Shown here: positions 18,799 through 61,616 of the stretch, piece by piece | How the letters are laid out: every line of letters starts with the position of its first letter | Numbering within the stretch: position 1 is the first letter of the stretch | Origin: Escherichia coli | Lineage (GTDB): Bacteria; Pseudomonadota; Gammaproteobacteria; Enterobacterales; Enterobacteriaceae | Assembly (NCBI RefSeq): GCF_044647545.1 | Contig: NZ_CP172818.1 | Length of the DNA: 64,000 nucleotides | Reading direction: 5' to 3' (one strand) | Notes under the pieces: generated by a model | Database searches by the model: none | Told to the model about the DNA's origin: nothing | What the model saw: the letters and a program-made list of their open reading frames with translations, nothing else | Position numbers and translations under genes: made by a program

Positions 18799-20001
18799 AT
18801 GGACCGCGTCCTTCATTTTGTACTGGCACTTGCCGTTGTTGCGATTCTCGCACTGCTGGTAAGCAGCGACCGCAAAAAAATTCGTATCCGTTATGTTATT
18901 CAACTGCTTGTTATCGAAGTGTTACTGGCGTGGTTCTTCCTGAACTCCGACGTTGGTTTGGGCTTCGTGAAAGGCTTCTCCGAAATGTTTGAGAAACTGC
19001 TCGGATTTGCCAACGAAGGGACTAACTTCGTCTTTGGTAGCATGAATGATCAAGGCCTGGCATTCTTCTTCCTGAAAGTGCTGTGCCCAATCGTCTTTAT
19101 CTCTGCGCTGATCGGTATTCTCCAGCACATTCGCGTGCTGCCAGTGATTATCCGCGCAATTGGTTTCCTGCTCTCCAAAGTCAACGGTATGGGCAAACTG
19201 GAATCCTTTAACGCCGTCAGCTCTCTGATTCTGGGTCAGTCTGAAAACTTTATTGCCTATAAAGATATCCTCGGCAAAATCTCCCGCAATCGTATGTACA
19301 CCATGGCAGCCACGGCGATGTCCACCGTGTCGATGTCCATCGTTGGTGCATACATGACCATGCTGGAGCCGAAATACGTCGTTGCGGCGCTGGTACTGAA
19401 CATGTTCAGCACCTTTATCGTGCTGTCGCTGATCAACCCTTACCGTGTTGATGCCAGTGAAGAAAATATTCAGATGTCCAACCTGCACGAAGGTCAGAGC
19501 TTCTTCGAAATGCTGGGTGAATACATTCTGGCAGGTTTCAAAGTTGCCATTATCGTTGCCGCAATGCTGATCGGCTTTATCGCCCTGATCGCCGCGCTGA
19601 ACGCACTGTTTGCCACCGTGACTGGCTGGTTTGGCTACAGCATCTCCTTCCAGGGCATCCTGGGCTACATCTTCTATCCGATTGCATGGGTGATGGGTGT
19701 TCCTTCCAGTGAAGCACTGCAAGTGGGCAGTATCATGGCGACCAAACTGGTTTCCAACGAGTTCGTTGCGATGATGGATCTGCAGAAAATTGCTTCCACG
19801 CTCTCTCCGCGTGCTGAAGGCATCATCTCTGTGTTCCTGGTTTCCTTCGCTAACTTCTCATCAATCGGGATTATCGCAGGTGCAGTTAAAGGCCTGAATG
19901 AAGAGCAAGGTAACGTGGTTTCTCGCTTCGGTCTGAAACTGGTTTACGGCTCTACCCTGGTGAGTGTGCTGTCTGCGTCAATCGCAGCACTGGTGCTGTA
20001 A
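18799..20001 (+). CDS. nupC: nucleoside:H+ symporter (CNT family)
   Basis: Internal ATG at 18799 with GGAG 5-9 nt upstream gives 400 aa [14 protein letters not shown]... Confidence 0.93.
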
Positions 20002-20038
20002 GACCATACAGGGATAATTCCCCGGTTTTTTACGCCTG

Positions 20039-22228
20039 TTAATCAGCTAATGGCTGCGGGCGACCAATCAAATACCCTTGCAGATATTGCACCCCGAGCT
20101 TATGCAATAGCGCCTGCTGCTGTTGCGTCTCGACAAACTCAGCGACCACACTCAATGACTTCGCTTTCGCCAGATCGGTAATTGATCTCACAATCATCGC
20201 ATCCAGCGTATTCGTGACGATATCTTTCACAAAGACGCCATCAATTTTGATGATATCAGCCTGCAAACGTTTTAACCGTTCGTAGTTGGCATAGCCGGTG
20301 CCAAAGTCATCAATCGCAATCCGGAAACCAAACTTATGCAGTTGCTCGATGTTGTACATGCTGCTTTCTGCGTTAGAAAACGCCTGCTCCTCGGTGATCT
20401 CAAGAATGACCGCCTGCGGGGAGATGTGATAACGCTTAAACAGACGAATAATCCGCCCGGCAATATTCTTTTGCAGCAGCGTGAGCGGCATTAAATTGAC
20501 TGAAAAGCGCGGGCCTTTTTTGTCGCAAGGATGTGTTGCCAGCCACTTCAACAGGGATTCCAGCACTTGCAAATCAAAACGCGCGCTAAGGTTAAACTGA
20601 GCAATAAGGGGCAGAAACTTATCCGGGGTCATAATGCCGCCGTCATATTTCAGTCGCGCGAGGATCTCATCATAACCTTCACCCTCTTTGTTGCGAATTG
20701 GCTGGGCGTAGAGCAGCAAATCACCCTGATCTAACGCCGTACGAATGGTATTCAGCAATAGCACCTGTTTAGTGGTCTGCCCGGAAACCATCTCCTCTCT
20801 GCTATCCAGCGCCAGCACATGGTGATGTGCGCAGGATTGCTCCGCCAGCCAGCTTAACTGCCCCAACAAGGGTTGCAGGGTTTCCTGATTTCCATCAAAA
20901 CGCCCCCAGGCAGCACCATAGCCCATATCCAGCCCGGTATTGTTCCAGTGAATTTGCCGACTATTCAGGATGTTAACCATATGCTGGAGTCGCCCTTCCG
21001 TTTCCGGCCCGCTCAGCACTAACAGCAGTTCACTACCCGGCAATTGATACAACTTTTCGTTTTCCTGCATCAACGGCAGCAGCGTACGGTAAATTGAGCG
21101 GATACAGTGAACGCGCATCATTAAGCCGTAATGACGACTCATAAACTCAAGATTATCAATGCGCAGGCAACAAAAACTCTTGCCCGCCTCTTGCTCCGGC
21201 GCTTGCTCCAACGCACGAAAGTTGGGTAGGAGCGTTAACGGATCGGTCAGCGCCTGCAAATGCCAGCGGCGGTTAAGCCATTCACTACGATGATAAATAC
21301 GCACCATATAGAGCAGGCAAACACTAAAGGAAATCAGTACTGCGAGAATAAATGCCAGCGAATATTCGGTTAGTACCCCTTGCAAAAAGTTCTGGTTATA
21401 ATTCAGAAGGCAAAGCGTTGAAACAGCCCAGGTGAGATTTAAAAACGGATAGCGAAGCTTACCGACACCGAGGGTAAAGATGATAAAGAAAACAGGTACC
21501 AGGTAACCGGCAATAAAGTCATTTTCATACGGTGTGCACATCAGAAGTAGCAGCACGCTAAGAGCTGCCAGCCAGCTTAAGGTAAATGCGCGTTTCTCTT
21601 TGCTCAACGACGGAGCGATATCCCTGCGCCACAATATCTGTGCAAAGTGGGGACTTACAATCATGCGGGTGAGATAGTAAAAAAGCATGTTGTAAATCAG
21701 CACTGCGGTGAAAAGGCTTAGCAAATCAACGACCGTGAAAATGGCATCCGCATCGCCGAAAAAGGTGGATATCTTTAGCGGGAAATCAAAAAAGCTCCCC
21801 ACAAGATACATGCTGCATTTGATGCCGATCGGCGTCACCAAACCAAGCCAGAAAAGACGTTGCCAGACATATCGGCTGGTCAATCCATATCGCCAACGCG
21901 TCCCCAGCTGCCAGCGTAATATTGCGCAGGCACACAACACAACAAACGTCTGGCTGCCGAGCATGACCGCGGTCTGTAAAAAAGAGAGATGAAAGTTCCA
22001 CAGATTGGTGCAAAACATCCCGCATAAAATGGGAACGACACCGCGCCAGCCAAAGATAAACAAGATTGACAGCATTACGCACAGTGGCATCCACGCCAGA
22101 AAGATATAACTGGAATGGATAACAGCAAGTGGCGAAATAAAACGGGATAGCTGAATAAGTACCACGGTGAGCGTAAACGCTAGTGTGAATATCTTGATAT
22201 TTTTTATCAGGTTATGCTCCACAAACAT
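20039..22228 (-). CDS. pdeA: c-di-GMP phosphodiesterase (MASE1 membrane domain, degenerate GGDEF, EAL)
   Basis: Start at reverse-strand ATG 22226-22228 gives 729 aa MFVEHNLIKNIKIF...; C-terminal EAL domain; the in-frame ORF extends 58 codons further upstream. Confidence 0.85.
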   Translation of the reverse strand: MFVEHNLIKNIKIFTLAFTLTVVLIQLSRFISPLAVIHSSYIFLAWMPLCVMLSILFIFGWRGVVPILCGMFCTNLWNFHLSFLQTAVMLGSQTFVVLCACAILRWQLGTRWRYGLTSRYVWQRLFWLGLVTPIGIKCSMYLVGSFFDFPLKISTFFGDADAIFTVVDLLSLFTAVLIYNMLFYYLTRMIVSPHFAQILWRRDIAPSLSKEKRAFTLSWLAALSVLLLLMCTPYENDFIAGYLVPVFFIIFTLGVGKLRYPFLNLTWAVSTLCLLNYNQNFLQGVLTEYSLAFILAVLISFSVCLLYMVRIYHRSEWLNRRWHLQALTDPLTLLPNFRALEQAPEQEAGKSFCCLRIDNLEFMSRHYGLMMRVHCIRSIYRTLLPLMQENEKLYQLPGSELLLVLSGPETEGRLQHMVNILNSRQIHWNNTGLDMGYGAAWGRFDGNQETLQPLLGQLSWLAEQSCAHHHVLALDSREEMVSGQTTKQVLLLNTIRTALDQGDLLLYAQPIRNKEGEGYDEILARLKYDGGIMTPDKFLPLIAQFNLSARFDLQVLESLLKWLATHPCDKKGPRFSVNLMPLTLLQKNIAGRIIRLFKRYHISPQAVILEITEEQAFSNAESSMYNIEQLHKFGFRIAIDDFGTGYANYERLKRLQADIIKIDGVFVKDIVTNTLDAMIVRSITDLAKAKSLSVVAEFVETQQQQALLHKLGVQYLQGYLIGRPQPLAD

Positions 22229-25648: not shown

Positions 25649-25724
25649 GGGTCGTTAGCTCAGTTGGTAGAGCAGTTGACTTTTAATCAATTGGTCGCAG
25701 GTTCGAATCCTGCACGACCCACCA
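25649..25724 (+). tRNA. lysV: tRNA-Lys (UUU)
   Basis: 76 nt GGGTCGTTAGCTCAGTTGGTAGAGCAGTTGACTTTTAATCAATTGGTCGCAGGTTCGAATCCTGCACGACCCACCA. Confidence 0.95.
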
Positions 25725-25729
25725 ATGTA

Positions 25730-25756
25730 AAAAAGCGCCCTAAAGGCGCTTTTTTG
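25730..25756 (+). terminator. intrinsic terminator of the Val-Val-Val-Lys tRNA operon
   Basis: Hairpin agcgcc-ctaa-aggcgct followed by TTTTT. Confidence 0.65.
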
Positions 25757-25834
25757 CTATCTGCAATTTGCGAAATTGCCTGATGCGCTTCGCTTATCAG
25801 ACCAACTATGTCCGGCAGTTCCCGTGCCTCTCAT

Positions 25835-34488: not shown

Positions 34489-35487
34489 TCAGGCGTTGGC
34501 GTCTTTGACTTCGCGGATGATGTCCTGGTACTCGCGCAATTTCTGCGGAGTCATCATACGGCGCTGATCGTCAAGCACTACACCGCCCACTTCATCGGCA
34601 ATATGCTGCGCAGATTGCAGCATTAGCTTGAAGTTCTGCAGCTCGTCACCGTAAGACGGTACCTGCATAAAGATAGTGACACCCGGAGTAGTGAAATCCT
34701 TCATTTCAGGATCAAAGGTTCCCGGTTTCACCATATTCGCCAGGCTAAATAACGCCGGGCCGCTGCCATCCGGGCTAAGATGACGATGGTAAATATTCAT
34801 ATCGCCAAAAATGAAGCCCGCTTGTTGAATGCTGTTAAGAAGCAGTTCACCGTTTAGCTCGCTACCGTGATGCGCCGCGACGTTCATGATAATCACCGCT
34901 TCTTTGCGCTTCGGTTTATCCATAACTGGAGCCGGTTCCGCTACAGGCTCAGGCTGTGGTGCCGCTACAGGCTCTGCAGGCTGGAAAGCCTGTTGTGCCG
35001 GTTGCGGTGCTGAATGCACTGGCTGCGGCGCTGATGCGACCTGTGGCGAAACTGGCTGCTGCAACGGCTGTTCAGGCTGCGGCTGATAGGCAGGCTGCTG
35101 CACGGGTTGCTGCACCGGCTGCGCTGGACGCGGAGCATGTTGCGGCGGTACCTGAGCTTCAGGCGGCTGCTGGACCGGTTGACGCGGCTGCGCAGACGCA
35201 TAAGGCGGTTGGTACTGGTGTTGCGGCGACGGACGAGCAGCCTCATGCTCCTGGGCGTTAGCCGGGGCATGATTCACGCGGTGAACTCGAACCTCACCAA
35301 CGCCCTCATCATCTTCGACATCCTCGTCATAAGAATCGTCGTCACGTTTTGACTTCATTCGTTTTAATGGCCGATCGCGGAACATAGAAGATCGTTCTTT
35401 ACGGCTGGTCCAGAAACCATGTACCAGTAAAGCGATTATGGCGATCGCGCCAACAATGATTAATATCAGACGCAAATCCTGCATCAT
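34489..35487 (-). CDS. zipA: cell division protein ZipA (FtsZ membrane anchor)
   Basis: Start at reverse-strand ATG 35485-35487 ([28 protein letters not shown] anchor); long P/Q-rich linker; C-terminal FtsZ-binding domain; 332 aa. Confidence 0.92.
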
Positions 35488-41532: not shown

Positions 41533-41955
<423 letters not shown>

Positions 41956-43002: not shown

Positions 43003-44100
43003 TCAGGCGCTTTGTGCGAGAGCAAGTTCCTCATCGCGGGTTTCAATACGCTCGTCGCCGTTATACAGCCGCGCATGTTGCAGGCCGACGAACAGACGAT
43101 CGCCGCGCACTGGCGCATCATCCCCGCGCATCACCACCGTCAAGGGTTCGTCATACCATCCCAGCGGCTGCACCACTAATTGGGTGTAGTGACCTTTCGG
43201 GCTGGCTTCCAGTACCTGTACGGGTAGCGGCGAATCGAGGCTGGTACGGCGGCTGATATCCACTTCCCACGGACGCAGGAAGAGATCCACCGGCCCCTGA
43301 TACGCAGGTGTATAGCCCAGCGGCCAGCGATGTGCGCCAACATGGAACTGCCCGCCGCGAATGGTTCCCTGCAGGCGGTTCACTTCGCCCATAAATTCGA
43401 GTACAAAACGGGTCGCTGGTTCGCGCCATACCTGGTCCGGTGCATCAGCCTGCTCGATATTGCCCTGGCTCATCACCACTACACGATCGGCTACTTCGGT
43501 CGCTTCTTCCTGGTCATGGGTCACAAACACGCTGGTGAATTTCAGCTCTTCATGTAACTGACGCAGCCGGCGACGCAACTCTTTACGCACCTGCGCATCC
43601 AGCGCGCCAAACGGTTCATCAAGCAGCAGAATTTGCGGTTCTACGGCAAGCGCGCGCGCCAGCGCCACACGCTGTTTCTGGCCGCCGGAAAGCTGCGCAG
43701 GATAGCGGTCTGCCAGATGGGCAAGCTGCACCATCTCCAGCAATTTTGTCACTTTCGCTTTGATAGCTGCGGCATTCGGGCGCTCGCGACGCGGCAGCAC
43801 CGTCAGGCCGAAAGCGATATTGTCGAACACCGTCATATGGCGGAACAGCGCGTAATGCTGAAACACGAAACCGACTTTACGATCGCGCGCATGCAGGCGG
43901 CTAACGTCGGTGCCGTGGAAGCGAATATGCCCGCTGGTTTGATGCTCCAGCCCGGCGATAATGCGCAGCAGCGTGGTTTTCCCGGAACCGGACGGCCCCA
44001 GCAATGCGACCATCTGACCAGAAGGAATATCCAGTGAGATATCGTTCAGCACCTGGGTGCGACCAAAAGACTTCTTAATATTGGCAATCTCAATGCTCAT
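43003..44100 (-). CDS. cysA: sulfate/thiosulfate ABC transporter ATP-binding subunit
   Basis: 365 aa; Walker [10 protein letters not shown]; ABC signature LSGGQKQR; Walker B LLLDEP. Confidence 0.95.
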
Positions 44101-46814: not shown

Positions 46815-46970
46815 TGCGCACCCTTATAAATTTAACGACTTTCTAATAGCCATCATATTTATAACGGACGTGAAAGGAGTAACGGTTTTATATACCGTTT
46901 GGTGATTTGGAAGTTGAAAAGGGAAAAGACGAAATCCTCCCCACAAATGCAGGGAGGAAACAGAGGTGAA

Positions 46971-52548: not shown

Positions 52549-52575
52549 GGCCAGTCAGTGTGTTACTGGCTGGCC
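52549..52575. terminator. hairpin terminator between convergent yfeW and yfeX
   Basis: ggccagtcagtgtgttactggcc with a T-run on the minus strand (for yfeX) and a weaker T-tract on the plus strand. Confidence 0.55.
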
Positions 52576-60270: not shown

Positions 60271-61575
60271 TCAGAAGAACAGTGACGGATCGCCCGCCCG
60301 TTTGGTCAGGCGACCGTTTGCCATAATGCCCATGCTTTCCAGCCAGCGTTCAAACTCCGGTGACGGGCGCAGATTCAGTAACTGACGCACAGTGGCAGTG
60401 TCGTGGAATGCGGTGGTCTGATAGTTGAGCATGATGTCATCACCCAGCGGCATCCCCATGATGTAGTTGCAGCCTGCGGTGGCGAGCAGGATCATCAGGT
60501 TTTCGTTGAGGTTCTGGTCAGCGTCAGCGTGGTTGGTGTAGCAGCAGTCACAGCCCATAGAGATGCCGCTCAGCTTGCCCATAAAGTGATCTTCTAAGCC
60601 CGCGCGGATAATCTGGCGGTCGTTGTAGAGATACTCCGGCCCAATAAAACCGACCACGGTGTTGACGATAAACGGATCGTAATGACGCGCCAGCCCATAG
60701 TTACGCGCTTCCATCGTCACCTGGTCAGCGCCGAAGTTAGCGCCAGCGGACAGCGCCGAACCTTGTCCGGTTTCGAAGTAGAGGCAGTTTTCCCCGGCGA
60801 TACGGTTAAACTCTGCACCCACTGCGCGCGCTTCGTCGAGCATCGCCAGCTCCACGCCAAACTCTTTCAGCCCTTTTTCGCTGCCGCAAATACTCTGGAA
60901 AATCAGCCCGCCCGGTGCGCCGCGACGAATCGCTTCGATCTGGGTGGTGACGTGCGCCAGTACGCAGCCCTGAGTTGGGATGTTGAATTTGTCGATCACG
61001 CCGTAGATGGTGTCCAGCACGCGGCTTAAGTTTTCCACGTCGTCCGTCACCGGGTTGACGCCGATCACCGCATCGCCCACCCCGAAGGAAAGCCCTTCGT
61101 AGATTTGCGCAGCGATACTTTGCACGTCGTCACGGGTGTCATTTGGCTGCAAACGGGCGCTGAAGGTGCCCGGAATACCAATAGTTGTATTGGCCTTTTT
61201 GATTACCGGCATTTTCTTCGCGCCGTAGATCAGGTCCGCGTTAGAACTGATCTTCGCCACCGCCGCGACCACTTCCGAGGTCAACCCTTTGCGAGTAAAG
61301 GCAATGTCGTCAACGCTGGTTTCGTCGCTCAGGACATACTCACGCAGTTCGCTGATGCTCCAGTTTTTAATCTGGTTGTAGGCCGTTTCGTTAACATCGT
61401 CCTGAATCAGCCGCGTCACGCAGTCATCTTCATAGGCAATCACCGGATTATTGCGGATGTCCGCTACGGTCATTTCCGACAACACCTGCTTTGCCGCCAC
61501 GCGCTCCTGTGAGCTTGCCGCAGCAACGCCCGCCAGCACATCCCCCGAACGCAGTTCGTTGGCTTTAGCCAGCAC
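60271..61575 (-). CDS. eutB: ethanolamine ammonia-lyase large subunit; start taken as the GTG at 61573-61575 (434 aa), N-terminal extent uncertain
   Basis: 434-aa frame with AAGGA 10 nt upstream of the GTG; the frame stays open upstream into the eutA 3' end with no ATG/GTG/TTG. Confidence 0.88.
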   Translation of the reverse strand: MLAKANELRSGDVLAGVAAASSQERVAAKQVLSEMTVADIRNNPVIAYEDDCVTRLIQDDVNETAYNQIKNWSISELREYVLSDETSVDDIAFTRKGLTSEVVAAVAKISSNADLIYGAKKMPVIKKANTTIGIPGTFSARLQPNDTRDDVQSIAAQIYEGLSFGVGDAVIGVNPVTDDVENLSRVLDTIYGVIDKFNIPTQGCVLAHVTTQIEAIRRGAPGGLIFQSICGSEKGLKEFGVELAMLDEARAVGAEFNRIAGENCLYFETGQGSALSAGANFGADQVTMEARNYGLARHYDPFIVNTVVGFIGPEYLYNDRQIIRAGLEDHFMGKLSGISMGCDCCYTNHADADQNLNENLMILLATAGCNYIMGMPLGDDIMLNYQTTAFHDTATVRQLLNLRPSPEFERWLESMGIMANGRLTKRAGDPSLFF

Positions 61576-61616
61576 CTCTTTTACATCCTTAAACTGATAT
61601 ACATTGCCGAAAGCCC

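Follow-up and report, generated by a model that had tools for sequence, protein, structure and literature searches.

IS186 inserts at the target 5'-GGGG(N6/N7)CCCC-3', which has palindromic flanks (Lee et al., 2016; PMC5009759), and the MG1655 genome contains only 19 such sites with the N6 spacing and 35 with the N7 spacing, insertion occurring in both orientations (PMC5009759). Known hot spots of this kind are, for example, fimA, menC and the promoter of lon (SaiSree et al., 2001, as cited in PMC3045373; PMC5009759). One of the three IS186 copies of MG1655 lies between nupC and yfeA, now pdeA, at genome positions 2512296-2513638 (PMC3045373, Table 6).

A second class of elements with a bearing on this locus is that of the E. 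coli bidirectional intrinsic terminators between convergent genes, in which a GC-rich hairpin stands between an A-tract and a T-tract. Such terminators were reportedly the subject of a survey by Ju and colleagues in 2019. Their placement between convergent genes is discussed in a recent preprint (bioRxiv 10.1101/2022.10.23.513370). The normal nupC-pdeA spacer is like these terminators in hairpin and tracts, and it has in common with the lon, fimA and menC hot spots the target motif, here a perfect N6 match that across genomes is occupied in both orientations. The version found in the DNA analyzed here, a stretch of 64 kb referred to as the window, departs from both: compared with the bidirectional terminators it is without the A-tract and one arm of the hairpin and passes neither the folding test nor the pattern test, and compared with the hot spots its motif is degraded to AGGG-N6-CCCC.

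In the window, the nucleoside permease gene nupC occupies 18799-20001 on the plus strand and ends in a TAA codon at 19999-20001. It was taken from the list of open reading frames, its start was set by collinearity with nupC of strain FDAARGOS_497, which lies at 18974-20176 of the collinear locus (an offset of 175), and its product scored 487 bits against the NCBIfam nupC model TIGR00804, for which the cut-off is 442. The convergent pdeA gene (yfeA), for a c-di-GMP phosphodiesterase, occupies 20039-22228 on the minus strand, with its stop codon, a TAA in reverse complement, at 20039-20041; it too comes from the list of open reading frames, with matches to EAL/GGDEF-type domains and an annotation drawn from collinearity. 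Both gene names are those given by the RefSeq annotation of collinear genomes. Between the two stops lies a 37-bp spacer, GACCATACAGGGATAATTCCCCGGTTTTTTACGCCTG, at 20002-20038, the length and boundaries of which had been recorded in the first-pass annotation and were recovered unchanged from the open reading frames. This spacer is best described as an unoccupied IS186 site that is also the truncated remnant of a predicted bidirectional terminator of 48-49 bp.

A set of genomes, among them FDAARGOS_497, MS6198, ECONIH1 and IMT16316, is essentially identical to the window; IMT16316 is the one that we take to belong to ST648. The window differs by 0-1 substitutions from IMT16316 and from FDAARGOS_497-type genomes, and an 11-bp gap is all that separates it from the closest genomes across the surrounding 24 kb. 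IMT16316 is named in papers that deal with ST131 and ST648.

Comparison with K-12 upheld the earlier statement that an IS186 copy separates the two genes in that strain: a record derived from MG1655 has a nupC-pdeA spacer of 1,398 bp, and not the 37 bp of the window. The insertion in that K-12 spacer is annotated as an 'IS4-like element IS421 family transposase', has terminal repeats CATAAGCGCTAACTTAAGGGTTG and is flanked by the duplicated target GG(G)ATAATTCC. It also upheld the absence of the element from the window. A blastn search of the window with the K-12 copy gave a best E-value of 0.87, a tblastn search for the InsL transposase or fragments of it gave a best E-value of 0.17, and the 23-bp terminal inverted repeats, the search for which had been proposed in the first-pass annotation, had no match with 5 or fewer mismatches on either strand of the whole window. 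Furthermore, no transposase gene is annotated across the collinear 64-kb region of FDAARGOS_497. The two other differences from K-12 that had been pointed out are likewise real, as K-12 carries yfeS between yfeK and cysM and the CPZ-55 prophage (intZ to yffS) between eutB and eutA, and the window carries neither. Identity to K-12 is 95.2-98.6%, block by block, in agreement with the proposal that the source strain is not MG1655-like.

The absence of IS186 relative to K-12 is nevertheless an ordinary strain polymorphism and one already known. Some 82% of complete E. coli genomes are without IS186 at nupC-pdeA, so that its absence here says little; the conclusion that the strain is not K-12 is true and ordinary, this state being that of around four in five E. 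coli genomes. What had been read from the spacer stands insofar as it is 37 bp long and free of an insertion sequence, and does not stand insofar as 37 bp was treated as the normal empty site, which is 48-49 bp in other E. coli. The length of the spacer is left unexplained by the absence of IS186, as a further 11 bp are missing.

The presence of IS186 at this junction is of interest in itself. The element was found there in the K-12 orientation in 478 genomes and in the opposite orientation in 465, together 943 of 5,425 (17%). The K-12 and O111:H8 copies lie in opposite orientations between identical flanks, and IS186 is also present at the site in a strain with a different spacer allele. The nupC-pdeA site is thus a recurrent IS186 hot spot, and absence of the element is the majority state. 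Occupation of the site in K-12 and in about 17% of genomes, in either orientation, is attributable to the stem of the normal hairpin being the GGGG-N6-CCCC sequence preferred by the transposase: the stem reads GGGG-ATAATT-CCCC, a perfect N6 match (GGGGATAATTCCCC in the closest relative), and a motif count over the 64 kb of that relative returned this site alone. In MG1655 the insertion point is within the same stem at the same locus, so that the window represents the unoccupied allele; unlike the MG1655 locus, it has no IS186 at all, and it falls 11 bp short of the true empty site. A limited literature search returned no report of nupC-pdeA as a population-level IS186 hot spot. With orientations near 50:50, a hairpin that would serve at once as terminator and as hot spot offers a clean case of a transposase targeting a terminator stem.

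The normal, IS-free spacer measures 48 bp in FDAARGOS_497 and 49 bp in strain 042, and removal of the insertion sequence and of one copy of the duplication from the K-12 spacer also leaves 49 bp. Its sequence, GACCATACA-TAAAAAAGCCG-GGGATAATTCCCCGGTTTTTT(T)ACGCCTG, forms a single hairpin, AAAAAAGCCGGGGA-TAAT-TCCCCGGTTTTTT, with the core CCGGGGA-TAAT-TCCCCGG, an A6 tract on its left and a tract of six or seven T residues on its right. RNA folding gave -21.6 kcal/mol for the plus strand and -24 kcal/mol for the minus strand, with z near -5 and none of 200 shuffled sequences as stable, and a pattern scan called a terminator on both strands of the relatives' spacer (two sites). Because the hairpin stands between an A-tract and a T-tract, and in view of what is established about intrinsic terminators, the normal spacer is predicted to act as a bidirectional intrinsic terminator common to the convergent nupC and pdeA transcripts. 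Judged from its sequence, the relatives' spacer passes as both a predicted IS186 target and a predicted terminator. Other alleles of the spacer exist: that of strain BS-04 is 45 bp long and has a shorter and weaker stem, GGGGATCATTCCCC, of -9.3 kcal/mol, and that of strain 2013C-4282 is 142 bp long, with a REP-like element between two copies of the terminator hairpin.

The 11 bp absent from the window, TAAAAAAGCCG, are present at the junction 20010/20011 in all close relatives and in K-12. A 100-bp query centred on this junction had no full-length match of high identity among 5,426 complete genomes, the gap being present in every one of the best full-length alignments, and an exact-match scan of metagenome contigs found no occurrence of the junction. 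These results bear on the reading implicit in the first-pass annotation, namely that the 37-bp spacer is the plain ancestral state before any insertion. Such a reading agrees with a spacer that is free of insertion sequences and with flanking genes that are both intact, and it is refuted on several counts: the spacers of all IS-free genomes inspected measure either 45-49 bp or 142 bp, the flanks in K-12 rejoin to give 49 bp, the genomes that otherwise match the window over 24 kb all carry the extra 11 bp, and the window's junction is in none of the genomes searched. We give it practically no credence.

Gone with the 11 bp are the A-tract on the left side and, from the left arm of the stem, GCCG. 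What is left of the hairpin, at 20011-20031 on the plus strand, is a 4-bp stem, GGGA/TCCC (20011-20014 and 20019-20022), with the loop TAAT, followed by CGG and the T6 tract (20026-20031). In the nupC direction this remnant stem has a folding energy of -5.7 kcal/mol, against -20.8 kcal/mol for the intact one. The window spacer as a whole folds at -9.2 and -9.4 kcal/mol on its two strands (z of -0.7 and -0.5), no better than shuffled sequence, and the pattern scan that called two sites in the relatives called none in it. A GC-rich stem of at least 5-7 bp, more stable than in shuffled sequence, is lacking from the window spacer, as is a U-tract following the stem in both directions, since the T6 tract is kept but stands apart from the 4-bp stem and the A-tract that would supply the U-tract in the pdeA direction is deleted. 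The IS186 target is degraded as well, to AGGG-ATAATT-CCCC (AGGGATAATTCCCC) at 20010-20023, and the canonical GGGG(N6/N7)CCCC motif has no site in the 64 kb of the window. If the sequence is real, the predicted terminator would be lost, completely for pdeA and largely for nupC, along with the integrity of the IS186 target.

The position of the loss invites an explanation by IS186 itself, in which the deletion would be a footprint of imprecise excision, or of an abortive transposase cut followed by end-joining, beside the target duplication. The deletion ends, on its right side, 0-1 bp from the left boundary of the K-12 duplication GG(G)ATAATTCC, the site is a proven hot spot, and the 11 bp lost are close to the length of the duplication. 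Against this, the window has one copy only of GGGATAATTCC and retains no bases of the element, no close relative has IS186 at nupC-pdeA, and the other four private deletions described below would be left unexplained, their sites not being IS186 targets. Excision of insertion sequences is, furthermore, very rare: among 857 IS events in 520 mutation-accumulation lines there was one excision, and that one was of IS3 (PMC5009759). An IS186 footprint is accordingly considered highly improbable. By the sequence tests applied, the window spacer does not qualify as an IS186 element, a canonical IS186 target, an IS excision footprint or an intrinsic terminator.

Comparison of the whole window with the closest genomes placed the 11-bp loss in a wider pattern, as the private differences consist of one substitution and five deletions, of 11, 9, 1, 1 and 27 bp. 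The first of these scars, at 20010/20011 in the nupC-pdeA spacer, is the loss of TAAAAAAGCCG, where K-12 has IS186. In the second, at 41949-41952, GGTGCCTGCGCAA is replaced by CCTG, a net loss of 9 bp at the end of yfeK beside cysM, where K-12 has yfeS and a REP element (about 970 bp). The third is a missing T at 46925/46926 in the cysP-ucpA spacer, beside an AAGA repeat that flanks a 142-bp insert in K-12, and the fourth a missing T at 52558/52559 in the loop of the pbp4b/yfeX terminator hairpin, which K-12 has duplicated around a 155-bp REP-type insert. In the fifth, at 61612-61616 in the eutA-eutB junction, AG stands in place of 29 bp, which makes a net 27 bp lost, at a distance of 3 bp from the TCAGGAAG repeat that marks the CPZ-55 site in K-12.

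Alignment of both the window and a relative to K-12 located five non-tandem K-12 insertions of at least 142 bp in the region, namely IS186, yfeS with its REP element, the 142-bp insert, the 155-bp REP-type insert and CPZ-55 (6.8 kb), and each of the five junctions has one of the scars at a distance of 0-12 bp. By a rough estimate, the probability of this coincidence by chance is about 1e-13. K-12-specific indels of 1-3 bp have no scar beside them in the window. Among the larger K-12-specific insertions of the region, just one has no private scar beside it, at 25707-25764, downstream of the tRNA-Val/Lys cluster, where K-12 is about 98 bp longer through the copy number of a tandem rtT-type repeat.

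Because all five private deletions sit where K-12 has large extra DNA, the 11-bp loss and the other scars probably arose as an artefact of sequence production, and not as mutations in the bacterium. The explanation that we favor as a whole, with a probability of roughly 0.68, is that the locus is an unoccupied IS186 hot spot and predicted terminator, the 11-bp loss of which was introduced during construction of the sequence. Under this proposal, the lineage of the window would never have had IS186 at nupC-pdeA, and the scars might stem from a reconstruction guided by a K-12-like reference or by alignment to one, or from a mixed-strain assembly broken at K-12-specific junctions.

Several simpler procedures or processes were considered and rejected. 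A naive consensus against a K-12 reference is ruled out by the insertions of the window relative to K-12, such as the 12 bp at 35096-35107, and by the non-K-12 alleles retained near the junctions; 5-14 bp from them the window has, for example, T6 and not T7, and TAATCTT and not TAATCCTT. The same insertions and the same alleles rule out that K-12 DNA was imported and its elements were then deleted. Simple trimming of the ends of alignment blocks fails to give the retained CCTG and AG islands, and indeed the exact junctions, with a loss that is one-sided and these two islands kept, were not reproduced by any specific procedure considered. Five other perfect hairpins with T-tracts on both strands (at 2770, 23607, 25732, 37661 and 40612), which are candidate bidirectional terminators, are identical to those of close relatives, and these intact hairpins rule out a general problem with hairpins, whether technical or mutational. 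Slipped-strand deletion is ruled out by deletion ends that have no microhomology.

The principal competitor to an artefact is a genuine, strain-private, spontaneous 11-bp deletion, by which half of the common terminator would be gone, nupC and pdeA transcripts could read through and the IS186 target would have been destroyed incidentally. The private substitution in cysA shows the source to be a distinct isolate, the deletion falls between the two genes and damages neither, natural spacers of 45, 48, 49 and 142 bp exist, and the surrounding sequence appears to be of high quality, with no other difference in 24 kb. The case for an artefact has matching weak points: the positional pattern is the sole basis for inferring it; the five changes avoid gene interiors, as would also be expected from selection acting on real mutations; the hairpin varies naturally, as in the 45-bp, weaker-stemmed spacer of BS-04; and the CysA W178R change, which marks the source as a distinct isolate, could have been accompanied by other real private changes. 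A genuine mutation is opposed by an allele that is in none of 5,426 genomes and in no metagenome contig, by the absence of microhomology between the deletion ends as read from the sequence, and by the unaltered state of the five other bidirectional terminator hairpins. It is opposed above all by the ratio of five deletions to one substitution, with every deletion at a K-12 insertion junction, which is not expected of independent mutations. We therefore regard a spontaneous mutation as unlikely, though deserving of some weight.

If all five micro-deletions were real, they would point to a process that acts specifically where mobile elements attach or insert, here at the prophage att site, the REP insertion points and the IS186 target. 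One candidate would be an abortive transposase or integrase cut that was then repaired by end-joining. The bidirectional terminator would then be erased, the IS186 hot spot refractory and the eutB start removed. We hold this to be a long shot.

An artefact of sequence construction, the preferred reading, carries a warning about data quality, since five scars at K-12 insertion points make other findings in the window suspect until the source reads are checked, among them the start that eutB seems to have lost, the changed C-terminus of YfeK and any statement that a terminator is missing. The second scar changes the C-terminus of YfeK from ...TDKTVPAQ* to ...TDKTL*; the variant protein has no record in an exact-protein index, in which normal YfeK is present in 51,372 blocks. 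The sole private substitution in the 64 kb, at 43569 within cysA on the minus strand, puts G in place of the A found in K-12 and in close relatives and results in CysA W178R, a protein that likewise has no record in that index. The fifth scar leaves the eutA stop intact and removes the ATG of eutB together with its first seven codons and the ribosome-binding region, the longest eutB reading frame that is left beginning at an internal GTG, at 61575. A truncated EutB of 434 amino acids is recorded in seven contigs; in a fourth contig examined it starts too near the contig end for the eutA-eutB junction to be covered, and the three that could be inspected across this junction have the normal eutA-eutB sequence.
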